From UHGV virus genome UHGV-1373577: DNA of 58,666 nt, one strand, 5' to 3'. Positions 2,061 to 58,666 of the stretch are shown in pieces (the first letter of the stretch is position 1; the number at the start of each line of letters is the position of its first letter). The notes beneath the pieces are model-generated. The model did not search any database, was not told where the DNA came from, and worked only from the letters and a program-made list of their open reading frames with translations. The stretch is from a virus. A program made the translations under genes and the position numbers.

Positions 2061-3800
2061 ATGAGCGTTGTCGGGAATGAGGCCGCGGCGAGGATGGCGT
2101 ACTGGTGCGCCACCGATGAGAAGGGGGGTGTCGGCTACGACCAGGGGACCCGGGAGGAGATCCGGGACCTGTCTTATGTCAGTACGCCTCGGCTGACCGG
2201 GGCCGTGGACTCCGACTGTTCGGCCATGGTGGCGGCGGCCTGCAACCTGGGTCTGCGGGCGGCCGGTGTCGTGCCCGCGGACGCGGGGGACGGCGACCCC
2301 CGCCTGCTGCCCGCGTCCACGTGGACGGGGTCGATGCGCTCCGAGCTGGAGGCGAGGGGCTGGCGGGAGGTCCACTGGGACGACGCCGCCATGACGCCCG
2401 ACGGCGGCTTCCGGAAGGGCGACGTGGTCCTGTCGTCGAAGGACGAGGGGGGTGTCGGGCACGTGGCCATGGTCGTGGACGACAACCCCTCTGATCCGGT
2501 CCTGGCCGAGGCGTGGATCGACGAGCGCGGGGAGATCACCGGCGGGGCCGTCGGCGACCAGACCGGAGGGGAGACCCGGCTCGTGTCCTACTCGGCGCAT
2601 ATTTATACACAGCGTGGTGCGTGGACGTCCTGCCACCGGTACGCGGGGGCGGAAGCGACCCCCGCCCCGCCCTCCGCCTCCTCCTCGTCCGCCCCCGCCC
2701 CTTCCAACGGAGGCAAGCCGGGGCCGCTGCTCGGTGTCGACATCTCCAAGTGGCAGGCGGGCATCAACATCGGCGCGGTCAACCCCGACTTCGTCATCGT
2801 GAAGGTGACGCAGGACGCCGGGGCCTACGCCACCACCAACCCGAACCACGTCGAGCAGCTGGGCGCCGCTCTGTCCCTGGGGCGGCCCACCGGTGTGTAC
2901 CACTACGTCGGGGGCGGGGACAACGGGAACGCCGACGACGCCCTCGCGGAGGCGAACAGGTTCCTGGACGCCGTCAGGGCGACCGGTCACCAGGACGACG
3001 TCTTCTACGCCATCGACTGGGAGTCGATCGAGAACTCGGCCTGGGGGAACCTGGCGTACCTGTCGATCATCGTCGGCAAGGTGCAGTCGGCCACGGGCAA
3101 GCCCGTGCTCCTGTACGCCTCCTCGGGGAGCTACCCGTGGAAGGTCGCCCAGGACTACGGGTGCGTGCCGTGGGTGGCGCAGTACGCCGACGAGGAGCCC
3201 ACCGGTTGGGACGCCTCGCCCTGGACGGACGGCTCCTGGGGCACCGAAGGGCGCATGCACCAGTACACGGGAACGGGGCGGGTGCCCGGCTACGGGGGCG
3301 ACCTGGATCTGGACGTGTGGCACGCCTCCGAGGCGGCCCTGCGAGCGCTGGCCCCCTCCGGCGGCCCTGTCGTTTCGGCCCCTCCGGCCCCCGCGCCCCG
3401 CGAGACGGCCCTCGACGGCCAGGAGCTGCTGGAGGTCGACGGCGAGTGGGGCTCACGGACCGTCGCTCGCTTCCAGCAGGTCATGGGCACCCCCATCGAC
3501 GGCGTGCTCGACGACGACGGATCCGCCTGCATCGAGGCGTTCCAGCGGTTCCTCAACGGGGCTGTCGGCCCCGCTCACCTGTCCAATCTGATCGGCGCCC
3601 CGGCCCTTGAGGTTGACGGCATCGACGGCGAGCGGACGTGGAAGGCGTTCCAGTTCCTCGTGTGGGCCTGGCACAGGGAGTACGTGCCCGACGGCTGGGA
3701 CTTCGGCGACTGGATCGACGGCGTCGACGGCCCCGCCACCGTCAAGGCCCTCCAGCGGGCGCTGAACGTGTCGACGGCGGGCACCGGTAGACTGTGGTGA
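2061..3800 (+). CDS. Endolysin: N-terminal NlpC/P60-type peptidase, central GH25 muramidase, three C-terminal peptidoglycan-binding repeats.
   Basis: DCSAMV...GDVVL...GHVAMVV (NlpC/P60 Cys/His motifs). GVDISKWQAGI...DFVIVKVTQ...VYHYV...YAIDWE (GH25). Three DGxxGxxTxxAFQ repeats. RBS gaaggagga before the ATG. Confidence 0.8.
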   Translation: MSVVGNEAAARMAYWCATDEKGGVGYDQGTREEIRDLSYVSTPRLTGAVDSDCSAMVAAACNLGLRAAGVVPADAGDGDPRLLPASTWTGSMRSELEARGWREVHWDDAAMTPDGGFRKGDVVLSSKDEGGVGHVAMVVDDNPSDPVLAEAWIDERGEITGGAVGDQTGGETRLVSYSAHIYTQRGAWTSCHRYAGAEATPAPPSASSSSAPAPSNGGKPGPLLGVDISKWQAGINIGAVNPDFVIVKVTQDAGAYATTNPNHVEQLGAALSLGRPTGVYHYVGGGDNGNADDALAEANRFLDAVRATGHQDDVFYAIDWESIENSAWGNLAYLSIIVGKVQSATGKPVLLYASSGSYPWKVAQDYGCVPWVAQYADEEPTGWDASPWTDGSWGTEGRMHQYTGTGRVPGYGGDLDLDVWHASEAALRALAPSGGPVVSAPPAPAPRETALDGQELLEVDGEWGSRTVARFQQVMGTPIDGVLDDDGSACIEAFQRFLNGAVGPAHLSNLIGAPALEVDGIDGERTWKAFQFLVWAWHREYVPDGWDFGDWIDGVDGPATVKALQRALNVSTAGTGRLW

Positions 3801-3847
3801 TGTCGGCCCCGGGCCGACACAGGTTGGACCGCGAGGAAGGAGGCGCC

Positions 3848-4066
3848 GTGGGCGCCTACAGCAAGAAGACATTCTGGATGGGGGTCGCCGAGCGGGCGAC
3901 CAAGACGTTCGCCCAGGCGGCCGTGGCGGCGATCGGCACGGCGGCGCTTCTGAGCGAGGTGAACTGGGTGGCGGTGGGTTCGACGGCGGCGCTGGCGGCG
4001 CTGCTGTCGGTGCTCACCGCACTGGGTGATCCCAAGGCGACCGACATCGCCGTCGCGCAGGGCTGA
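3848..4066 (+). CDS. Holin, phage_r1t-like (two transmembrane segments).
   Basis: GTG start after RBS ggaaggagg. MGAYSKKTFWMGVAERATKTFAQA matches the r1t-holin N-terminal signature. Hydrophobic stretches follow. Directly downstream of the endolysin. Confidence 0.6.
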   Translation: MGAYSKKTFWMGVAERATKTFAQAAVAAIGTAALLSEVNWVAVGSTAALAALLSVLTALGDPKATDIAVAQG

Positions 4067-4133
4067 TCCCCGCACCGCGAACCGCGCCCCCGGCACCTCA
4101 CAAGGGTGCCGGGGGTTCTTCGTGTCCGCCACT

Positions 4134-4454
4134 TTTCCACAGGGTTTTCCACAGGTGGTGTCAACCTTGGTTGCTGAGGGGTGTCTCATGCCACACCAAT
4201 GTGGTCGGGGTCATAGGGGCTCGGGCTTTCGTTGGAAAACCGCCAAAACGCCCTGTGCACGAAGTTGGGGATAACTTGTGGATAAGTGGCCTCCTGACGG
4301 GGGGCAACTGACCATTAGAACTACCGTTCTAATCGGCCCTCCACAGAACCCCTAATTTTGTCCACTTCTGCGCCCACAAGCTAAACCGTTTTAGTACACA
4401 CGGCCATCCACAGGCAAAGCCGCGTCATACCAACGAAAAGTGGGGTTATCCACA
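4134..4454. promoter_or_regulatory. Cluster of six DnaA-box-like 9-mers in an AT-richer non-coding island.
   Basis: TTTTCCACA x2 (4134-4153), TGTGGATAA (4277-4285), TTGTCCACT (4368-4376), CCATCCACA (4404-4412), TTATCCACA (4446-4454). Confidence 0.4.
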
Positions 4455-4605
4455 GGAAAACCCGCTTACTACTACTACTTCTACCTCTTACATACCGCGG
4501 AGAAGAAAAAAGAAGAGCCGTCGTACAGGGGCTCCACCCCCGGCCACCACGGTCGCTTGCGAGCGGGTAGGATGTGTGCTAAGGCAGCACAGACGAAAGG
4601 GCGCC

Positions 4606-6234
4606 ATGACCACCTTCAGCGTGTACTCCCGTGACGGAGCGAACAGGCGGTTCGCCCTCCGCACCGAGACCGACGCCATCCGCAGCCTCCTGCCCGCCCT
4701 CACCGGGACCGGCACCGTCATCACCCTGCGTACCGGCGAACACGCCCCCGCTGGTACTAGGTCCGGCACCCTCGTCCTGCGCGAGAAGGCGGCCCTCGAA
4801 GGGGGCGTCGTCGTGCGCTCCTCGGCCGTCGGGCGGGCCCAGGCCGGTGTCGGCGACCCCCTCACCGCCACCAGCCAGCCCGGCGATTTGGCCGTGCTCA
4901 TCATGGCCGCCCAGCTCCAGGCCGACCCGACGCCCTCGCCCATTCCCGAGGGCTGGACGGGGACGTGGCAGCCGCAGATCGGGGGCACCAACCGCTCCGG
5001 CTACGTGGCCACGCGGAAGGTGACGGGGGCCACCGACACCCGCGGCGTGGAATGGTGGGTGAAGACCAAGGCGTGGACCGCCAGGCAGAGGGCCGTGCTC
5101 GTCATCCTGGCCGGTGTCGACGTCGATCGGGCGGCCGCCGGGCAGTGGAGCGCGACTCTGGGCGCGGCCCCGGCGGGCGCAACGGCCCGACTGCTCGTCT
5201 CGGCGGCCCACGGCACCAAGGACAACAAGATGGCGGCCTGGACCCTTGAGGGCGGGGCCGTCGTCGCCGACGGGCTGGCGGACGTGTCGACCACGGAGTC
5301 CTGGTCGGCGGTGCGCGCGGTGCTGGGCGGGGCCGACAAGCCCCCGGACGGGGCCGGAGCGAATCCCCCGGCCGCCTGGGCGCAGGTGGGCCTGGTGGCG
5401 AAGGCCGCCGGTGGGGGCGAGGATCTCGACGGGACGACGGTGCCCCTGCGGTTCGGGGGCGAGGCCACCCGGGCGGGGGTGTCGATCATGCCCTACGGGG
5501 CCCGGTCCGTCTCTGCGCTGAAGGAGGCGGGCGCAGGGCGCAAGAATCTTGTTATCGGGCACCGGGGCATGAGCGGGGCCGGGGATGTCGTGGAGCACAC
5601 CATGGCCGCGTACACCCGGGCGGTGGAGTGCGGTGTCGACGCCCTGGAGATCTCCTGCCACCGGACCTCCGACGGGGTGTGGCTCGCGTCGCACGACTCC
5701 ACTCTGGCGCGTCTGGGAGGCCCCTCCACGCCCATTCGGGACATGACCTGGGCCCAGGTGCAGGCGGCGTTCGCCGCTCGGCCCGAGGCCGTGCCGGTGA
5801 CGCTGAAGGACTACCTGGCGACCTACGGCGCAACGCACGTGACGATCTTCGACCCCAAGACGGAGATGGCCCGTTCCGACGAGTACCTGGCCCTGCTGAA
5901 GGACTACAAGGACCGTGTCGTCGTCAAGGCGTTCGCCGACGCCTGGTGGCTGTTCGCCAAGGTCAAGCAGGCCGGGTGGGCGACCTGGGGGTACGCCTAC
6001 GCCCGCAACCGCGGCCAGAACTGGTACCCGGACTTCGTCCAGGGCACGAACCTGGACTTCCTGTCGATGGAGTGGGATGCGTCGGATGACGTGTGGGCGC
6101 CGCTGGTGGCCACCGGCAAGCCGGTCATCGCCCACATCCCCGCCTCGGTCGCCCAGGCTGCGGAGGGCGCCCGCAAGGGGGCCGCGGGGTGCATCACGTC
6201 GCGCGCCGACCTCGTGGCCGGGCTGAAGGTGTAG
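4606..6234 (+). CDS. Glycerophosphodiester phosphodiesterase (GDPD) domain protein. N-terminal tag is shared with gene 48..2030.
   Basis: C-terminal VIGHRGMSGAG...VEHTMAAY...ALEISCHRTSDGVWLASHDSTL matches GDPD catalytic motifs (HRG, E..D..T.DG....HD). N-terminus MTTFSVYSRDGANRRFA parallels MTTYDVYSKRGADNRFA of gene 48. Confidence 0.65.
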   Translation: MTTFSVYSRDGANRRFALRTETDAIRSLLPALTGTGTVITLRTGEHAPAGTRSGTLVLREKAALEGGVVVRSSAVGRAQAGVGDPLTATSQPGDLAVLIMAAQLQADPTPSPIPEGWTGTWQPQIGGTNRSGYVATRKVTGATDTRGVEWWVKTKAWTARQRAVLVILAGVDVDRAAAGQWSATLGAAPAGATARLLVSAAHGTKDNKMAAWTLEGGAVVADGLADVSTTESWSAVRAVLGGADKPPDGAGANPPAAWAQVGLVAKAAGGGEDLDGTTVPLRFGGEATRAGVSIMPYGARSVSALKEAGAGRKNLVIGHRGMSGAGDVVEHTMAAYTRAVECGVDALEISCHRTSDGVWLASHDSTLARLGGPSTPIRDMTWAQVQAAFAARPEAVPVTLKDYLATYGATHVTIFDPKTEMARSDEYLALLKDYKDRVVVKAFADAWWLFAKVKQAGWATWGYAYARNRGQNWYPDFVQGTNLDFLSMEWDASDDVWAPLVATGKPVIAHIPASVAQAAEGARKGAAGCITSRADLVAGLKV

Positions 6235-36859: not shown

Positions 36860-37159
36860 TTACGATGTGAGCTCGTCCAGGACCCACAGCAGAAGTCTGC
36901 GACCGGAGGGCTTGAGGGATCGCGAAGCGAACACGATGAGCCCGATGTCCGAGATGATCGCGCTCCTCTGTCGTCCGCCCTCGGTCTCCAGCTCCGGGTA
37001 CGCCTTGTCCCCGTCGGCCACCGAGCGGGCGATGGCGTACCCGTCACGGAACCCCAGGGCCCTGGCGAGGTCCGAGGCGGCGAACCAGAGGTGGCGGCCG
37101 TCGTGGTAGGTGCGGATGACATGCCCCTCGTAGTGCATGTTCTGTGTTCTGTCCATCAC
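36860..37159 (-). CDS. Bro-N domain protein (paralog 1).
   Basis: HVIRTYHDGRHLWFAASDLARALGF matches the Bro-N core (VR....WF.A.DVA..LG). Confidence 0.5.
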   Translation of the reverse strand: MMDRTQNMHYEGHVIRTYHDGRHLWFAASDLARALGFRDGYAIARSVADGDKAYPELETEGGRQRSAIISDIGLIVFASRSLKPSGRRLLLWVLDELTS

Positions 37160-37926
37160 TTCTTCTCCTTGTTCTTCTTGGCTTCCCTCTTCTCCGGGAA
37201 GCCCTTGGCGTAGCTCTCGCTCCAGGCGCAGTCGAAGATCGGGCGGTCGGCCTCGGTGTAGACGCAGACCTCGTGGACCTGACCGGAAGGGGTCTCGTCG
37301 AAGCGCTTGCCAGGTTCGACACCCCGCTCGGCCTTGTAGGCCTTCTTGACGTACTTGCCGAAGGTGGGGGCGTAGCTCTTGATGTTGTCGCTCGACACCC
37401 CCTGCTCGCGCATGTAGTCCTGGATGTAGAGGGGTCGCGCGCTCGCTTCGATCTCGGGCGTGTCGCCCATGGCCCGGGCCAGGACGATCTTGGCCTTGGC
37501 CTCCAGGTAGTCCCTGGCGATGACGTTCTTCAGGGTGTCGAGGACACGGGCCTGGATCTCGAAGCCGGTTGTTGCGGTCGGCGCCGCCCCGGGCCGACTG
37601 TAGGACCCGGTCCGTCGGATCGACGGCAGGACCTCGTGGGTGACCCAGCGTCGGAACGGCGTGGCCGCCTCGACACGAGCCCGCATGAGCACCGTAACCA
37701 GTCCAGCCTCGGAGATGGTGCTGAGTGTCTGCTCTCCTCCAGGGGTACTAACAATGGTAGTACCCCTCTCGTCCTCGTCGACGCCCTTGATGGTGTTTGC
37801 GGCATCACGGTGTCCGAGGATGCGGGCGACGTCGGCGGCGATGAACCAGGCCATGCCCTTCTCGTCCTCGTAGGCTCGGAGCCTCTCGTCCCCGTAGTGG
37901 AACGGGGTCAGTGCAGTGTCCGTCAC
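37156..37926 (-). CDS. Bro-N domain antirepressor-like protein (paralog 2, with C-terminal extension).
   Basis: GMAWFIAADVARILGHRD Bro-N core. 256 aa. Confidence 0.5.
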   Translation of the reverse strand: MTDTALTPFHYGDERLRAYEDEKGMAWFIAADVARILGHRDAANTIKGVDEDERGTTIVSTPGGEQTLSTISEAGLVTVLMRARVEAATPFRRWVTHEVLPSIRRTGSYSRPGAAPTATTGFEIQARVLDTLKNVIARDYLEAKAKIVLARAMGDTPEIEASARPLYIQDYMREQGVSSDNIKSYAPTFGKYVKKAYKAERGVEPGKRFDETPSGQVHEVCVYTEADRPIFDCAWSESYAKGFPEKREAKKNKEKK

Positions 37927-37983: not shown

Positions 37984-38217
37984 CTACCCTACCCTACTAC
38001 CGCGGGGGCCCGCAAGACGTGGACCGATGGTGGCCAGCCACATGGTGAACGTGCGCCGGTCGATGAAAACCATCTCGCGGACCTTGCCATCCGCGGCAAC
38101 CGAGGTCATCATGACCTCAACTGCCCAGGACTGACGCTGGAGCCGGTGACGCTGCGAGTGCACGTCCAGACCGAGCGCCTCGCAGACAGGGCGCAGGGCG
38201 ACGTGAGCCCAACTCAT
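37984..38217 (-). CDS. P22 antirepressor N-terminal (AR_N)-like domain protein.
   Basis: CEALGLDVHSQRHRLQRQSW...REMVFIDRRTFTMWLATI resembles the P22_AR_N profile as remembered. Confidence 0.4.
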   Translation of the reverse strand: MSWAHVALRPVCEALGLDVHSQRHRLQRQSWAVEVMMTSVAADGKVREMVFIDRRTFTMWLATIGPRLAGPRGSRVG

Positions 38218-38555
38218 ACCATCCCCCGTCCCTCCTCTCTCGCCCGCTCCCTGGCGTCCTTGCGCAGCTCGACATCCAGGACCTCATCCAGCAGCCAGCG
38301 GTAGAAGCCCTCGGACCGCTCGGACCGGGACCGGAACGCCAGGCCGATCAGCGCCCGGGCCGACACCGCCCTGGCATCATGTACCCCCCGGCGCCCAGAC
38401 ACCTTGAACCAGCGGACCTCGTTCTTGCTGAACCTGCGCAGCATGTTGGGCGAGTCCCGGTACCCCAGGGCCACGGCCACGTCCGCGGCGACGAACCAGG
38501 CGCCGTCGTCATCGACGAACGCCCGCAGTTCATTCTTCTCGTAGTAGAACAAAAG
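38214..38555 (-). CDS. Bro-N domain protein (paralog 3).
   Basis: ELRAFVDDDGAWFVAADVAVALGYRD Bro-N core. Start taken at MLLFYYEK. Confidence 0.5.
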   Translation of the reverse strand, partial: LLFYYEKNELRAFVDDDGAWFVAADVAVALGYRDSPNMLRRFSKNEVRWFKVSGRRGVHDARAVSARALIGLAFRSRSERSEGFYRWLLDEVLDVELRKDARERAREEGRGMV

Positions 38556-38625
38556 CATGGCTTCTCCTTCCCCGACACGGCCGGGGCCCCGCCATGCAGC
38601 AGGACCCCGGCCGGTCATCATGGGA

Positions 38626-43675: not shown

Positions 43676-43999
43676 TTACTTGACGGGGATGTCGATGAAC
43701 AGGAGCGAAGGCAGGATCCGATCCACGATCAGGTCCGGCTTGTCGAGCCGGGCAACGTCGAGGTTGATCTCGATGAGCTCCCCGGCCCGACCGGTGCGCC
43801 GCATCAGGGTGAGCACGTCCCAGGCGGTGATGGCCGCCGTCCACTCCTGGCCGCCCATGATCCACACGATCATGCACAGGCCCTCGGCCCCCTTGCTTTC
43901 GTCGATGGGCAGGGGCCGGTACCCCTTGCGGATCATGGCCACGCGCAGACCCAACATGGCCAGGGCCAATTCGTTGGTCCTCTTGTCCTCAGCGCTCAT
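43676..43999 (-). CDS. Hypothetical protein.
   Basis: Inner Met start MSAEDKRTNEL. About 107 aa. Confidence 0.3.
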   Translation of the reverse strand: MSAEDKRTNELALAMLGLRVAMIRKGYRPLPIDESKGAEGLCMIVWIMGGQEWTAAITAWDVLTLMRRTGRAGELIEINLDVARLDKPDLIVDRILPSLLFIDIPVK

Positions 44000-54676: not shown

Positions 54677-55250
54677 TTTTCGGTTCCTTTCGGAATTGGG
54701 TGGGGATGATAATGGGTGCCCGGTCCTCTTCTGACAGAGTCCTCTCGTCACCATGCGGGTGACCGGGGCGGTTCTGAGCCGTCCGCTCGGTGTTACCGGG
54801 CCGCGTATTTCGTCTTAAATCCGTTCATCTCACGCCCCAGGACCGTTCTGGGCGTCCCACGACATATGATGATACGGGCTCCCGGTCCCCTTGGGGACCG
54901 GTCCTGCGCATCGTCGTGGGCGTCCGCACGGCCCTATGGGCACGGATCGCGTCTGGCTCGCCAGCCGCTCGCGGTAATTTTTAACCGTCTATTGCATTAC
55001 CGCGAATATGTAGTTCTCAATCTTCCCGGGGTAAGGATGAGACCGGAGGACTTCGTCCTCGCTCTCTTCCTCCCCTTTGTGATGACTCCAGTCTAGCGCG
55101 CCTGTTGGGGTTTGTCTATGCTTGATTCTGTGTTCTACGTCTCTTTGAGGTTTGAGGTTCAAACTCGGGAGTTCGTCCGCCGGATGGCGGGGCCGACAAA
55201 TGCTCGTCCTGTTCGCGCGCTATGCAGTTGTGCTGAGTCGCGCCCGCCGG

Positions 55251-55303
55251 AGGAATCGAACCCCCGGGCCCGCCGTCATGGGCGACGGCGGGCGACCATC
55301 CGG
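55251..55303 (-). ncRNA. tRNA-like minihelix E (53 nt). Acceptor GCCCGCC/GGCGGGC, joiner with a CGCC-CATGAC-GGCG hairpin, T-arm GGGGG-TTCGATT-CCTCC (one G-U pair).
   Basis: Read on the - strand, 14 nt after the stop of gene 55317..55655. Confidence 0.4.
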
Positions 55304-55316
55304 GCTGTAGCGGGGC

Positions 55317-55655: not shown

Positions 55656-56389
55656 CTCGGTGTTCCCTTCGATCGGTGCTCCTTGCTGACGGGTATAAAT
55701 GTACTCGCCCCGTGAGGGCTGGTCAAGGGGTGAGGGCGGTTGTGGAGCGTGTTCTGCGTCTCATTTTGAGTTGGGGGCGGGGATGAGGGCACGACTCACT
55801 TCGTGATCTCGACAATCCCCGGGGCGCACGGATGATGCTCGTCAGTTTCACGTGAAACATATGAGTAGGGAATGGCGGGGTATGGGGCGGGGAGTCGACA
55901 TGCGCTTGGCTGCCTTGCGTGCTCCTGCGTCGCACGCGCGTCTCGCCAGCGCGTGACCTAGAGCACATAGAAGCGGGGATGCACAAGGATGGGGGTAAGG
56001 CAAGGGACAAAAGTCCCGAAGAGAGGATTGGGTTGGTTGGGGGTAGGGCGAAAGTTTCGGGTAGCCGAAACATGGTATGTGTGACGTAGGTATGTGCGGC
56101 GTGGTATTACGTCTGGCGTATCATCCTCGGGGAGGAGAAGTGTGATGGAGAAGACATACATTTGGGGGTAGACAGAATGACTTGGGTATGCTATGGAGAA
56201 TGAGATGGGGATCACAGGGGATGAGGGTTGAAGATAACGTTGTTATGTGTATGTGTGAGTAGCAATCTCGCGTGAGGGTGGGTTGGGAGTATGGAAATCT
56301 CGTCCCAAAAATAGTGAAGTTCGGGTAAATGTGACTTGGACCATATGCATAAAGATACGGTTGAGTGCATATTGCGTTATCTTCGTAAT

Positions 56390-56465
56390 AGATGATGATG
56401 ATGATGATGATGATAGATGATGATTGATGATATATGATAGATGATAATAGATGATAGACGATGAC
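56390..56465. repeat. (GATGAT)n microsatellite degenerating into GATAGATGA variants.
   Basis: gatgatgatgatgatgatgatgatagatgatgattgatgatatatgatagatgataatagatgatagacgatgac. Confidence 0.8.
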
Positions 56466-56525
56466 TATATTTGGTAAACGATAGTCTTTAATCCTGCGTT
56501 TACTATTTCCTGTTCAACGCTAAAT

Positions 56526-56620
56526 GTGACCTAAGTTACGTTATCTATTTTTGACTTTGTGACCTGGGTTACGTTAACTATTCTTGATTGTGGCCTGGCT
56601 CACGTTTATCTATATTTGAC
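56526..56620. repeat. Three tandem iteron-like repeats of about 32 bp (GTGACCTRRGTTACGTTAWCTATTYTTGA).
   Basis: gtgacctaagttacgttatctatttttgac / gtgacctgggttacgttaactattcttgat / gtggcctggctcacgtttatctatatttgac. Confidence 0.7.
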
Positions 56621-57768
56621 GGCCTTTTACGCATACGTCGGCCTCGGATTGGTACTCATTAGACAAGCGTCGAATTAGCCTTTCACGCTGGGTTGAAACG
56701 ATTCGAAGCCGAATCGTCGCTGTACGGGGCCTAGAACGGCCCATACCCCTACCCCCAGGCAGTTACACCGACCGGGGTGAGTTAGGCCGCCAGCGTGGCT
56801 TACAGCGCGTCGGAGACCCATATGGGCCTGCCTCAGTACACACCCATGCACACGCACGCGCGCGTGATAGCACCATAGGGAGGAAAGTGCAAGGGTGAGT
56901 TTGTGTGCGGTGAGTCATGTGTCTTGACACAGTGTGTGTGAGCAAGGCAACAAATTAGTGGGAGTGCCCCATCGTTTCGATTTGGGGTAGGAGCTGCGTT
57001 CCGCCCACGGGGACCTTTCGTTGGCACCGTAGGGAAAGGTGCCGATAAGTACCGTTATGACAATTTACTTAGCAGACTATCTACATACCGGGGAGTTTTT
57101 GAGCGGGGCATTTTAGTGCGTGCGTGGGAGAAAATCAATGTGACGTCGCTCGCAGCCGGGCGAAGGCGAAATCGGATGCTCTCGACGACGGGGCGTGGCA
57201 CGCGGGTGTGAGGTCGCTCATCTTTCCCCGCACCCTACCCACCTAAACCCCCAACTTCCCTACTCGCCTAGCAGAGTGTCGACTGATCCGTCAAAACGGC
57301 CCTCCTCGCCTCCCGAGACCCAATATAAGTTTATGCACTCTTTTTATCCATGGCTGCATAAACGTGTTCCACGTCACGAGTACTAAACCAGCCCCTTCAG
57401 CCACACAAACCCCGCCCGTACCATAGGACTTCGGACCCATCACCCCGACCTACTCCAGCCATCTCAACGAAAAGTCCCCCTTAGGCCACCCTAAGAAAAT
57501 CCTGCATATTTCCTATGCACACCCATGCATAAAACCCTAATATTTCGGCCTTGTCCGCAATCTGAGATTTTCGCCGAATATGTCTACTGCGTCACACTTT
57601 TTTATCCACTCAACCCCCTCCTCTCCTCAGTACCTATCTGTTACTGGTGTGACTCCACATCATCAAACACACCCCATCAGCACCAAACATCTTGATTCCT
57701 CGAAGACAGTTACCCGTGCGGCCTGTGTGACTAAGCCCGACCGCAAAACCCCTCTCCACCATCATCAA

Positions 57769-58050
57769 GGGGGTGTCGATGCCTCCTAGGCCCCGAAACC
57801 CCGATACAACTTCTCTGTTTACTATGCGAACCCCTTCCTCCTCTTCTTTCGCCCCCTCCTCCTGAGCCCCGCCAGTCACAGCCCGGCCCTCAGCCCTTCC
57901 GCGCCCCGCCGACCCGGCCGTCCGCTTCAACGCCCTCTCCTCAAGGGCGGGGGTGTCGACAAACCCCCTTGACAGTCCGCCAACACCGGTTATAATCGCG
58001 CGCCCGCGCACGCGCGGTAATAAGAAGGAGAAGCCGGAGGGGGTGTCGAA
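57769..58050. promoter_or_regulatory. Three spaced copies of AAGGG(CG)GGGGTGTCGA upstream of gene 58089..58631. Candidate operator, pac or ori protein-binding sites.
   Basis: caagggggtgtcgat (57769), agggcgggggtgtcgac (57948), ggagggggtgtcgaa (58038). Confidence 0.35.
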
Positions 58051-58088
58051 CCCCGAAACGGGCAGGAACCTCGTGATATCCTCAAGTC

Positions 58089-58631: not shown

Positions 58632-58666
58632 GAAGGACCCCCGACGACCATGACGACGACGAACGA
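58632..58666. repeat. Third copy of the ~32-bp terminal/tandem repeat, matching nt 1-32.
   Basis: gaaggacccccgacgaccatgacgacgacgaacga versus ggacggcccccgaccatgacgacgacgaacga at nt 1-32. Confidence 0.6.

Follow-up and report, generated by a model that had tools for sequence, protein, structure and literature searches.

A candidate oriC-type module of DnaA boxes and DnaA-trios in an optional non-coding island of a phage genome

Results

A non-coding island between the lysis cassette and the GDPD gene

The window, that is, the whole stretch of 58,666 nucleotides analysed here, is a 58.7-kb phage genome that carries portal, capsid and tape-measure genes and, among cultured phages, is closest to those of Arthrobacter and Microbacterium (~30% amino-acid identity). 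Genes for a GDSL hydrolase, a GH25 endolysin and an r1t-type holin are followed by a GDPD-domain gene (4606-6234, plus strand), recognised with Pfam and PHROG, which heads the packaging and structural gene block. The gap that separates the holin stop from the GDPD start codon at 4606 (4067-4605) is non-coding and has a GC content of 57%, against 67.1% for the genome. Within this gap, an accessory non-coding island of 459 bp (4122..4580, no strand assigned) with 54.7% GC was delimited by matching the flanks of a relative in which it is present (L025) to those of one in which it is absent (L019). A sequence-only reading of the same DNA had described an AT-richer non-coding island with DnaA boxes between a lysis cassette and a GDPD gene, and both the composition and the flanking genes agree with that description.

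The left flank of the island is a GC-rich hairpin, CCCCCGGCACC / GGTGCCGGGGG, followed by TTCTTCGTG (4087..4115, plus strand), which resembles a terminator at the end of the lysis cassette. Its 11-nt arms are 100% complementary and are kept in relatives with and without the island. At the right end, a -10-like TAGGAT (4567-4572), 35 bp ahead of the GDPD ATG, and a ribosome-binding site GAAAGGG (4595-4601) lead into the ATG (4567..4608, plus strand); these were assigned by conservation, the block GCTTGC..GGTAG(G/C)AT..GTGCTAA being conserved across variants. Island-less relatives hold a -10-like GTAGAAT or TGAATAT at the matching position. Consensus scans of 3700-4900 for sigma-70 promoters and for terminators returned nothing, the hairpin being missed by the simple terminator scan because of its weak T-run, which leaves conservation and the hairpin as the basis for assigning a promoter and a terminator. 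As for chromosomal oriC neighbours, neither dnaA nor dnaN adjoins the island, which is bordered by the holin and the GDPD/terminase block. A transposon or MITE was rejected, as there are no terminal inverted repeats or target duplication at 4122 and 4580. In the GC-skew analysis proposed in the sequence-only reading, the skew follows the direction of transcription and is uninformative on an origin.

As a conserved non-coding block upstream of a gene, the island might encode a small RNA, a riboswitch-like leader or a small protein, which we consider extremely improbable. An Rfam scan of the island gave nothing that reached the gathering threshold and, at E<1, just two hits of chance level, and the alignment fold had a covariation term of -0.96 kcal/mol, with predicted helices that mostly pair inverted box cores. 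None of the open reading frames in the gap passes the GC3 test, and one variant (L002) has lost 11 bp, which breaks any reading frame. Both a non-coding RNA and a small ORF were rejected on these grounds.

A cluster of DnaA boxes

DnaA boxes were searched as 9-mers with no more than one mismatch to TTATCCACA or to the actinobacterial form TTGTCCACA, a consensus that may not be the host's own. The genome holds 19 such sites, which overall is not above chance (12.7 +/- 3.9). Six of the 19 fall in the 322 bp of 4133-4454, where 0.16-0.21 (~0.2) are expected; this expectation comes from 5000 simulations with the island's own composition, which yielded at most 3-4 sites. The exact pattern TT[AGT]TCCACA occurs four times in the 58.7-kb genome, each time inside the island. 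Six boxes with at most one mismatch had also been counted in the sequence-only reading; the number stands and the membership changes, since CCATCCACA (4404-4412) has two mismatches and TTATCCCCA had been missed.

The array begins with a tandem pair on the plus strand, TTTTCCACA ggg TTTTCCACA (4133..4153), whose members at 4133-4141 and 4145-4153 are 3 bp apart. The short direct repeats reported earlier are present, TTTTCCACAGG occurring twice with a 3-bp spacer, unchanged in 10/10 island variants. A minus-strand group follows (4254..4285), in which a degenerate TCGTGCACA (4254-4262) lies beside TTATCCCCA (4266-4274) and a perfect TTATCCACA (4277-4285), the last two being separated by 2 bp. Weaker plus-strand boxes with a common CCAC(A) core occupy 4337..4412, namely CCCTCCACA (4337), TTGTCCACT (4358-4366, within one mismatch), GCGCCCACA (4370) and CCATCCACA (4404), and a perfect plus-strand TTATCCACA (4446-4454) completes the array. 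The boxes number 6-7 per island here, and 12-13 in a second island subtype. Between the facing pairs lies a block without boxes (4156..4253, no strand assigned) that contains GGTGTCAAC (4157) and a small palindrome CCACAccaaTGTGG (4191-4204); 73% of the columns at 4156-4225 are invariant in a ten-variant alignment. The plus pair (4128-4150) and the minus pair (4268-4290) mirror each other as a 78% inverted repeat with 117 bp in between. Another palindrome, ATTAGAAC tacc GTTCTAAT (4304..4323, no strand assigned), was read from the sequence and the alignment; its right half is kept in all variants, and in subtype 2 its left half becomes two extra minus-strand boxes. A search of the island for iterons found none besides the DnaA boxes themselves.

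The tandem 23-mer was also found by a genome scan in >120 bacterial genomes of many phyla. Among 120 such bacterial loci that were fetched, 36 also hold a canonical BUS, the box-and-trio unit described below, and are thus oriC regions; their recovery served as the positive control of our BUS scanner. The extended tandem site TTNTCCACAGG has the form found in oriC regions across many bacterial phyla, and this suggests DnaA itself, rather than a phage-specific protein, as the probable binder. No Bac_DnaA_C or similar domain, nor any other obvious box-binding domain, was found in the ~50 phage ORFs scanned, and no gene was found to co-vary with the island over ~0-43 kb and the 58.1-kb gene, the range covered in the relatives.

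The symmetry of the array could suit some other DNA transaction, such as a T5-like injection stop, membrane anchoring via DnaA, an ssDNA initiation hairpin (primosome), sites for a phage protein or a packaging signal. The inverted repeat around the conserved 117-bp block would fit such a role, as would the lambda-like position between lysis genes and terminase and the distance of the island from a contig start common to several independent assemblies (7-8%), which recalls the paired DnaA boxes of hypothesised function at ~8% of the genome in T5-like phages. Set beside the T5-type arrangement, the island shows one plus pair with a 3-bp spacer and one minus pair with a 2-bp spacer, and not all relatives possess it. 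At the shared contig start there is a short repeat on which assemblies could break, and this start need not be a physical end; an optional element can be no essential cos/pac or injection signal. Together with the oriC form of the tandem site, which points to DnaA, and the lack of a co-varying phage gene in the range given above, this makes the whole group of explanations highly unlikely.

A box, spacer and trio unit next to unstable DNA

A BUS comprises one or more DnaA boxes, a GC-rich spacer, DnaA-trios and AT-rich DNA; it was defined in B. subtilis incC and is predicted in 85% of 2070 bacterial oriCs (PMC6669920, PMC8287927). The published rules require a box with <=2 mismatches, a spacer of <=16 bp (peak 10-13) and >=3 NAN trios, with 3'-GAT-5' preferred, and a tandem second box, the commonest form (57% of predicted chromosomal BUSs), is optional (PMC6669920, PMC8287927).

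In the island, the box at 4446-4454 has 0 mismatches to TTATCCACA and is followed by the 11-bp spacer GGAAAACCCGC (4455..4465, no strand assigned), whose length is kept and whose sequence is variable, with 14 bp from the box to the first CTA. Six consecutive trios with a central A, against a minimum of three, occupy 4466..4483 on the minus strand (top strand TTA CTA CTA CTA CTT CTA). Read on the minus strand they are 3'-AAT GAT GAT GAT GAA GAT-5', and five of the six fit the consensus 3'-G/AAT-5'. The box stands upstream as 5'-TTATCCACA-3', on the strand opposite the trios. There is no second tandem box by the trios, as the 9 nt after the box, GGAAAACCC, have seven mismatches to the consensus; the unit is therefore of the single-box form, like those of contigs L469, L230 and L237. 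The genome has no other box with a CTA-type trio run, and none appeared in any of 100 simulated genomes.

A low-stability A-rich stretch resembling a DNA-unwinding element, CCTCTTACATACCGCGGAGAAGAAAAAAGAAGAG (4484..4517, no strand assigned), was identified beside the trios by a stability scan and the alignment. The putative unwinding stretch is AT-richer merely relative to a 67%-GC genome. The segment 4465-4494 is the least stable 30-mer outside a second non-coding region (region B, described below), at -34.1 kcal/mol where the genome averages -48.2 (sd 3.3), which places the trio segment ~4 sd off the mean, and 4435-4494 is likewise the least stable 60-mer outside region B. With a perfect box, an 11-bp spacer, six correctly oriented trios and an unstable duplex, the earlier label of an oriC-like cluster is supported more strongly than by the boxes alone.

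Because the island lies directly upstream of the presumed promoter, a regulatory role is conceivable. Under this alternative the island would be the upstream control region of a late promoter for the GDPD, terminase and structural genes, and bound DnaA, or opening of the DNA 80-100 bp upstream, would activate or time the operon and couple late expression to DnaA or to phage copy number. DnaA is an established transcription factor, the island sits exactly between the lysis-cassette terminator and the conserved TAGGAT, and BUS-like elements in two other contigs (L469 and L441) also lie 45-80 bp upstream of a co-oriented ORF. However, island-less relatives hold a -10-like element and the same downstream genes without boxes, the nearest box is >110 bp from the -10, and the promoter itself is putative, the sigma-70 consensus scan having found none. 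To our knowledge, trios have no role in transcription. We regard control of the late promoter as quite unlikely.

An optional module that is conserved where present

The island is present in six of 25 IMG/VR relatives. At the remaining 19 loci there is a stretch of 86-114 bp or a different short junction, and the distance from holin to GDPD gene is 538-546 bp where the island is present and 86-114 bp where it is absent. The junctions that lack the island are of at least three kinds, and since they differ from each other, deletions fit better than a single insertion. On the reading that we prefer, the module is optional, and close relatives have gained or lost it several times. Conservation of the boxes in related phages, on which the sequence-only reading had made its proposal depend, is accordingly divided: the array is missing from about three quarters of the relatives and is kept among the carriers.

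Ten unique variants of the island were collected, all in the same phage context, and they form two subtypes that are ~80% identical. Across these ten variants, the tandem box block is invariant at 23 of 23 positions, the trios at 17 of 18 and the box at 4446-4454 at eight of nine, the last being TTATCCACA or TTTTCCACA in every variant. The spacer (4455-4465) is invariant at five of its 11 positions and measures 11 bp in nine of ten variants, and 81% of the positions at 4484-4515 are invariant. Box cores are invariant at 87% of positions, compared with 57% in the rest of the island, in a small and related sample of ten variants; in a first comparison of six sequences, whole 9-mer boxes did not differ from non-box columns (71% vs 72%). 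These statistics are weak, as the variants are few and closely related. Variation in the boxes falls on the tolerated position 3 (A/G/T). Subtype 2 has TTGTCCACA, TTGTCCACA and TTTTCCACA plus two further boxes at the minus-strand box positions, and CTGTCCACA, TTATCCACA, CCTCCACAG and CCGTCCACA plus an additional TTACCCACA at the weaker plus-strand positions, a turnover towards more and better boxes in this richer subtype. We thus count the boxes as probably kept by selection where the island exists.

Homology searches bear on the origin of the module. The island with its flanks had no match among GenBank phages in near and distant search modes, the island had none among PLSDB plasmids, and the first 12 kb of phage Amigo contain no box cluster. 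Against the 120 fetched bacterial loci there was no extended similarity, the match being limited to the 23-mer. An exact-pattern scan of metagenome contigs for the island BUS returned only phage contigs of this context and three unrelated microsatellites. The island might nevertheless be passenger DNA, that is, a bacterial dnaA-dnaN intergenic (oriC) fragment captured by illegitimate recombination, without function and not yet lost. Its 459 bp and its layout (boxes, BUS, AT-richer stretch, promoter, gene) mirror a chromosomal oriC-dnaN region, and the several island-less junctions suggest repeated deletion. Against such a relic stand the absence of extended similarity to the 120 fetched bacterial loci, plasmids and GenBank phages and the finding of the island BUS solely in a phage context, never a host-like one. 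Moreover, subtypes ~20% diverged keep the boxes, the trios and the spacer length, one of them has gained boxes, and the design recurs in an unrelated phage (see below). An inert passenger is therefore very unlikely, although the module may once have been captured from the oriC of its host.

Replication genes of the phage and region B

The phage has genes for PolA, a primase(-helicase), an exonuclease and an SNF2 helicase, and relatives that lack the island retain the same replication genes. A non-coding region of 2.4 kb between divergent gene arms (region B, 55656..58088, no strand assigned) was recognised from the GC profile and repeats; it contains ATAGATGATGAT repeats (56388-56465), three ~33-bp iterons (56525-56620) and a GC dip to ~30%. 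Its GC profile is kept in all eight relatives examined, with or without the island, and across the circular join its iterons are 6.7 kb from the island. The primary origin and control region of the phage is probably region B. An array missing from about three quarters of relatives cannot be an essential origin, for which region B is the better candidate, and the phage's own PolA and primase together with this conserved iteron-bearing, AT-rich region mark the island as accessory. An essential origin or a cos/pac site at the island was rejected, as 19 of 25 relatives do without it.

A phage with its own replication genes has no obvious need of DnaA, and the boxes might instead act as a decoy. 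The island would then be a datA-type sink or an oriC mimic that soaks up DnaA-ATP, perhaps with helicase and loader, as phage DNA amplifies, so that new host initiation is blocked or DnaA-controlled genes are perturbed; the benefit would lie in host manipulation, not in phage replication. The 7-13 boxes per genome copy, some of them in close pairs that favour cooperative binding, fit this idea, and so does a dispensable module of patchy distribution, as expected of an accessory host-takeover function. Yet a pure sink needs no oriented and spaced trios or unstable segment, and the island has both, as its best conserved parts; no IHF-type site or hydrolysis-promoting arrangement is recognisable in it. 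The trios and the local instability favour unwinding over pure titration, and the sequence separates the origin, titration and transcription roles no further. We consider a decoy unlikely.

Similar designs in other viruses

An unrelated phage contig of 66% GC (L469) has ten boxes followed by a box, 14 nt and CTACTACTACTA, upstream of a portal block. In its layout, this design is the same as that of the island. Human-associated Microviridae of the gut and mouth (~5.5 kb) carry TTTTCCACA-gccc-CTACTACTACTACTA in an intergenic region. A literature search for DnaA-trios or oriC-like elements in phages found nothing relevant, and the arrangement of box and trios does not seem to have been described in phages before.

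Discussion

The island resembles a small chromosome origin, with boxes followed by an opening motif, and the phage therefore probably recruits the host initiator. The explanation that we prefer, at about even confidence, is that the island is a phage-borne oriC-type module which recruits host DnaA for host-driven unwinding or as an auxiliary origin. Host DnaA-ATP would fill the boxes, and a DnaA protomer on the box at 4446-4454 would nucleate a filament onto the trio strand, which would open the duplex at ~4466-4517. A replicative helicase, either host DnaB or the phage primase-helicase, could then be loaded on the opened DNA. The module would thereby provide an auxiliary, host-driven start of replication beside the phage's own polymerase, primase and iteron-type origin region.

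A bolder proposal, which we offer tentatively and with clearly less confidence, is that viruses carry working systems of DnaA boxes and trios, and that the island is a natural minichromosome origin which runs on host proteins only and recurs across unrelated viruses. The genome would then be opened, possibly fully replicated or kept as a carrier-state episome, by the host machinery. If this were true, hijacking of the BUS would be a general and so far undescribed viral strategy.

The box-plus-trio unit is seen as the core element of chromosome origins in bacteria. If the module is functional, the host initiator would be exploited even by lytic phages that have a replisome of their own, and its compact 459 bp would constitute a portable origin for high-GC Actinobacteria that could be useful in vectors. 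Relatives with and without the island would offer a natural phage pair for gauging what DnaA recruitment buys a virus, and the signatures in an unrelated phage and in Microviridae would turn an oddity into a testable general class.

Among known systems, chromosomal BUSs are the closest in layout. The strands of box and trios in the island are as in B. subtilis, S. coelicolor and Arcanobacterium, with further boxes upstream in both orientations. The B. subtilis BUS, reconstructed from the table and text of the paper, reads TTATCCACA AATCCACA GGCC CTACTATTACTTCTACTA, and the predicted BUS of Arcanobacterium haemolyticum (Actinomycetaceae), TTATCCACA GTTTCCACA GAGC CTATTACTACTACTA, shares the trio string TTACTACTACTA with the island. 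Unlike these, the island lies in a phage between lysis and packaging genes rather than beside dnaA/dnaN, is optional and has a single box in its BUS.

T5-like phages have eight DnaA boxes, with pairs 3 bp apart in inverted repeats, in a non-coding region at ~8% of the genome (bioRxiv 10.1101/866236, citing 1987 work). The T5 iss region shares with the island its setting in a lytic tailed phage, a repeat-rich non-coding region, paired boxes 3 bp apart and inverted repeats, and its function is experimentally unestablished. No trios or unwinding element have been reported for the T5 array, which is part of the terminal repeat and is conserved in all T5-like phages, whereas the array here is optional, includes a BUS and resides in an unrelated 59-kb high-GC siphovirus-type genome.

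Box clusters outside oriC, namely datA and DARS1/2 of E. coli and the clusters of B. subtilis, bind many DnaA molecules and alter the availability of the initiator. The island shares with them several boxes outside oriC. In contrast to it, these clusters are without a trio/DUE unit, do not open DNA and are host-encoded regulators of the host cycle.

Mobile replicons such as RK2 oriV, pSC101, F and P1 oriR borrow host DnaA via R-type boxes; in plasmid origins DnaA assists an element-encoded Rep, by which the iterons are bound and the DUE is opened, and according to a 2024 review no interaction of DnaA with plasmid DUE ssDNA has been demonstrated (PMC10797057). The island differs from plasmid and phage-plasmid origins in its chromosomal box-trio layout and its lack of iterons, the nearest such repeats being those of region B, 6.7 kb away. 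In oriC minichromosomes, a cloned oriC fragment of a few hundred bp, with boxes, unwinding unit and adjacent promoter, replicates on host proteins only. Minichromosomes are laboratory constructs of host DNA, and the island would be their natural viral equivalent.

A DnaA-box cluster with a predicted basal unwinding system in the holin-GDPD gap

The non-coding gap between the holin and GDPD genes spans 4067-4605 and holds a 459-bp module (the island, 4122-4580) with a GC content of 54.7%, against 67.1% for the genome. A sequence-only reading had placed six DnaA boxes here, and their positions were confirmed: of 19 sites across the genome that match with no more than one mismatch, six fall in 4133-4454. 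One of the sites it listed, CCATCCACA, has two mismatches, and its list lacked the one-mismatch box TTATCCCCA. The genome-wide number is at chance level (12.7 ± 3.9 expected); locally, the six boxes compare with 0.16-0.21 expected and a simulated maximum of 3-4 (5000 simulations, island composition). All four exact TT[A/G/T]TCCACA sites of the genome lie within 4133-4454, and the island has five of the eight TCCACAG heptamers, each of them plus-strand.

From left to right, a hairpin with perfect 11-bp arms after the holin gene (4087-4115) is followed by a tandem box pair on the plus strand, TTTTCCACAgggTTTTCCACA (4133-4153). A box-free conserved block of ~100 bp separates this pair from three minus-strand DnaA boxes (4254-4285), two of which, flanks included, mirror the plus-strand pair as an inverted repeat (78%). 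Next come a 20-bp palindrome (4304-4323), four weaker plus-strand boxes with a common CCAC(A) core (4337-4412) and a perfect plus-strand box, TTATCCACA (4446-4454). The latter is followed by a spacer, GGAAAACCCGC, and, in top-strand reading, by the trios TTA CTA CTA CTA CTT CTA (4466-4483), an A-rich stretch ending in GAGAAGAAAAAAGAAGAG (4500-4517), a GC-rich variable segment, and a conserved GCTTGC..GGTAGGAT..GTGCTAA block before the RBS and the GDPD ATG (4606). In addition, ATCCACAGGCAAAGCCGCGTCATAC (4406-4430) and ATCCACAGGAAAACCCGCTTACTAC (4448-4472) form a 25-nt direct repeat with 80% identity and an offset of 42 bp; the box-plus-spacer unit appears to be duplicated, with trios after the second copy only.

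In the island, the repeat CTACTACTAC complements 3'-GAT-5' DnaA-trios, which belong to the basal unwinding system (BUS) of bacterial chromosome origins. A bacterial BUS comprises a DnaA box with no more than two mismatches, a spacer of up to 16 bp (peak 10-13 bp) and at least three NAN trios, with 3'-GAT-5' preferred (PMC8287927). In the published orientation, the island conforms to every one of these sequence rules: its box is perfect, its spacer measures 11 bp, and of its six trios five agree with the G/AAT consensus. Its box-spacer-trio orientation is identical to that of the BUS in B. subtilis (top strand, TTATCCACA AATCCACA GGCC CTACTATTACTTCTACTA) and to that of the predicted BUS in Arcanobacterium haemolyticum of the Actinomycetaceae (TTATCCACA GTTTCCACA GAGC CTATTACTACTACTA; table in PMC8287927). 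A scanner purpose-written to the published box, spacer and trio rules was validated on 120 bacterial loci retrieved for a different purpose, 36 of which yielded canonical BUS elements. Applied to the phage genome, it identified the island as the sole site combining a box with CTA-type trios, one further match at 43983 being intragenic and without CTA, and found no such site in 100 simulated genomes. In a nearest-neighbour analysis, no 30-mer outside the large non-coding region at 55656-58088 was less stable than 4465-4494 (-34.1 kcal/mol versus a genome mean of -48.2, sd 3.3).

Distribution, conservation and putative role of the island

Of 25 IMG/VR relatives whose sequence includes the GDPD gene start, six had the island and 19 lacked it. 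Its limits were set by a matched pair of relatives with identical flanks, one with the island (L025) and one without (L019). At least three distinct island-less junctions were found, one with a -10-like GTAGAAT, one without it and one after a different upstream gene, and island presence did not follow holin or GDPD type. This pattern fits a mosaic module that was repeatedly lost or exchanged. DnaA-dependent control of the adjacent late promoter would agree with a conserved -10-like element directly downstream of the island, but relatives cope without the island, and we regard such a role as unlikely.

A metagenome scan brought more copies, resulting in 10 unique variants, all in the same phage context, that form two subtypes ~80% identical. 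Across these variants, 23 of 23 positions were invariant in the tandem pair, 17 of 18 in the trios, 8 of 9 in the BUS box (sole change A/T at position 3) and 5 of 11 in the spacer, whose length was retained, and box cores were 87% invariant versus 57% in the remainder of the island; coming from a small sample of related sequences, these figures are indicative and do not represent formal tests. Subtype 2 contains 12 boxes, two of them perfect TTGTCCACA; two subtype-2 boxes occupy the place of half a palindrome in subtype 1, the form found in this genome. That the island holds an RNA or peptide gene is scarcely credible.

The tandem extended form TTNTCCACAGG, with 12-bp spacing, is not unique to this phage. 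Its degenerate pattern matched more than 120 viral contigs with GC contents from 27% to 72%, the variable base being A, T or G at every site but one, and the exact 23-mer spanning the tandem pair matched over 120 genomes of bacteria in many phyla, where it often shares an 8-kb locus with a canonical BUS. This universality points to putative DnaA sites rather than sites of a phage-specific protein. Neither a DnaA-like domain nor an integrase, repressor or partition gene was detected among the phage ORFs scanned, and in the part of the genome compared across relatives (~0-43 kb plus the 58.1-kb gene) no gene co-varied with the island.

The chances are about even, in our estimate, that the island is an auxiliary, host-driven unwinding/origin module. 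The data establish the sequence architecture, its statistical significance, the conservation pattern and the optional distribution; the events that we infer are that host DnaA-ATP would fill the island boxes and that, from the protomer at 4446-4454, a filament would grow along the trios of the minus strand. The duplex would then open at ~4466-4517, and a helicase would be loaded on the opened segment. Sequestration of DnaA by the island as a decoy is a clearly lesser possibility, as that role needs neither conserved trios nor an unstable segment.

The large non-coding region and the phage genome

The 58,666-bp sequence is the complete or nearly complete genome of a tailed phage with 67% GC. 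The plus-strand gene arm runs from 58089 across the sequence join to ~28.7 kb, encoding in order an unknown 180-aa protein, a 660-aa GDSL hydrolase, a GH25/CHAP endolysin and an r1t-type holin, and, after the gap, a 542-aa GDPD-domain protein, three small genes, large terminase, portal, capsid and a 1798-aa tape measure. The minus-strand early-gene arm (28.7-55.7 kb) encodes, among others, a family-A DNA polymerase, a primase (DUF3987), an exonuclease, an AAA_24 protein, an SNF2 helicase and three clustered Bro-N proteins (36860-37159, 37156-37926 and 38214-38621), of which the 256-aa one was found in just 3 of 13 relatives. A tRNA-Met (CAT) gene lies at its distal end (55240-55315, minus strand), adjoining the large non-coding region.

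This 2.4-kb region (55656-58088) divides the divergent arms and contains ATAGATGATGAT repeats (56388-56465) and three ~33-bp TGTGACCTAAGTTACGTTATCTATTTTTGAC-like iterons (56525-56620). Its GC falls to ~30% with the lowest duplex stability of the genome, and the GC skew flips from +0.27 to -0.29. All eight relatives examined keep this profile, whether they have the island or not. The region probably serves the phage as its own origin and for early/late control, and its retention irrespective of the island makes the latter accessory. Two weak DnaA-like boxes, TTGTCCGCA (57551) and TTATCCACT (57602), occur there at similar offsets in most relatives.

The 8-mer GGTGTCGA was present in 50 copies genome-wide (5.9 ± 2.5 expected), on both strands and also within genes, for example at 57772, 57952, 58042, 58199 and 58283, with a variant, GGTGTCAA, in the island at 4157. 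Copies in coding DNA lack an extended consensus; in the non-coding DNA upstream of 58089 the 8-mer takes the form GGGGGTGTCGA. About two-thirds of the copies are co-oriented with transcription and about half contain GTCGAC; regulator sites, codon-driven bias or a methylation/restriction link through GTCGAC are candidate explanations.

No GenBank phage gave a nucleotide match. The nearest cultured relatives are Arthrobacter and Microbacterium phages (~30% protein identity), and IMG/VR contains many close relatives, several from HMP-numbered samples; a high-GC actinobacterium associated with humans is the probable host. The N-termini of the GDSL hydrolase (48-2030; MTTYDVYSKRGADNRF..) and the GDPD protein (4606-6234; MTTFSVYSRDGANRRF..) are alike, and in Arthrobacter phage Amigo 541-aa and 378-aa 'minor tail proteins' occupy the slot upstream of terminase, so that both enzymes may be virion-associated, cell-surface-degrading proteins with a common anchor domain and not lysis proteins. 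PolA matches in some relatives (L360-L366) measure ~3170 nt versus 2238, and one TerL match (L051) 1968 nt versus 1590; the corresponding ~930-bp and ~380-bp insertions lack a counterpart here and could be an intein, intron or homing endonuclease. A 32-bp near-tandem duplication (GGACGGCCCCCGACCATGACGACGACGAACGA) opens the sequence (1-64), and its end (58634-58666), CCATGACGACGACGAACGA, is identical to 14-32, as a circular assembly join would give. Six independent contigs (L007, L008, L009, L012, L013 and L027) all start within a few hundred bp of one point, representing either true genome ends or an assembly-breaking repeat.

Recurrence in other phages and comparison with known systems

Scanning IMG/VR with the pattern TCCACA-N3-14-CTACTACTACTA yielded 105 loci, ~80% with a proper box, a set that may include misclassified host DNA. 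L469 (IMGVR_UViG_3300044511_000244), a phage contig unrelated to this genome (GC 66%, P22-type portal), carries at 5817-6024 a run of ten TCCACAG[G/C] boxes on one strand, followed by TTTTCCACA, 14 nt and CTACTACTACTA, the distance from box to first CTA being equal to the island's. The element lies 80 bp upstream of the next gene, and the array has the portal block on one side and, on the other, a 921-aa ORF containing a LAGLIDADG intein together with two small ORFs. Judged by its sequence, this contig is an independent example of the island's design. Such recurrence, together with conservation across both subtypes, renders a non-functional captured oriC improbable.

A canonical tandem BUS adjoins an HTH_36 gene in another locus (L441). 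Circular Microviridae of ~5.5 kb contain a BUS-like element within an intergenic region, as at 124-148 and 5559-5583 in L423 (IMGVR_UViG_3300045988_003214); ~30 such human-associated contigs of 4.3-5.9 kb, encoding F capsid, Chlamydia-phage scaffold protein and Rep, occur among L392-L496. Their canonical-looking BUS, TTTTCAAC TTTTCCACA gccc CTACTACTACTACTA, is followed by AT-rich DNA and may be a DnaA-dependent origin or complementary-strand priming signal in these ssDNA phages. A phage family of 55-58% GC from the same sample set (L161 and its sister contigs L090, L097, L098, L106, L128, L133, L136, L146, L169 and L174) has seven DnaA boxes in tandem pairs (2940-3070 in L161) at the edge of a large non-coding region of its own, rich in GATCATC repeats; matches in this family often lie <300 bp from contig ends.

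Plasmids and P1 also carry DnaA boxes, which there aid a Rep protein, and according to a 2024 review an interaction of DnaA with ssDNA is yet to be demonstrated at plasmid DUEs (PMC10797057). T5-like phages possess eight DnaA boxes, in pairs 3 bp apart, in the injection-stop region, with a hypothetical function (bioRxiv 10.1101/866236); in contrast to the island, trios have not been reported in their array. It is very improbable that the island is a T5-like injection/anchoring or single-strand initiation signal, or that its sites serve an unknown protein. As a search of the available papers for DnaA-trio or oriC-like elements in phages turned up nothing relevant, what seems new here is a predicted BUS of the chromosomal kind in a viral, optional setting.
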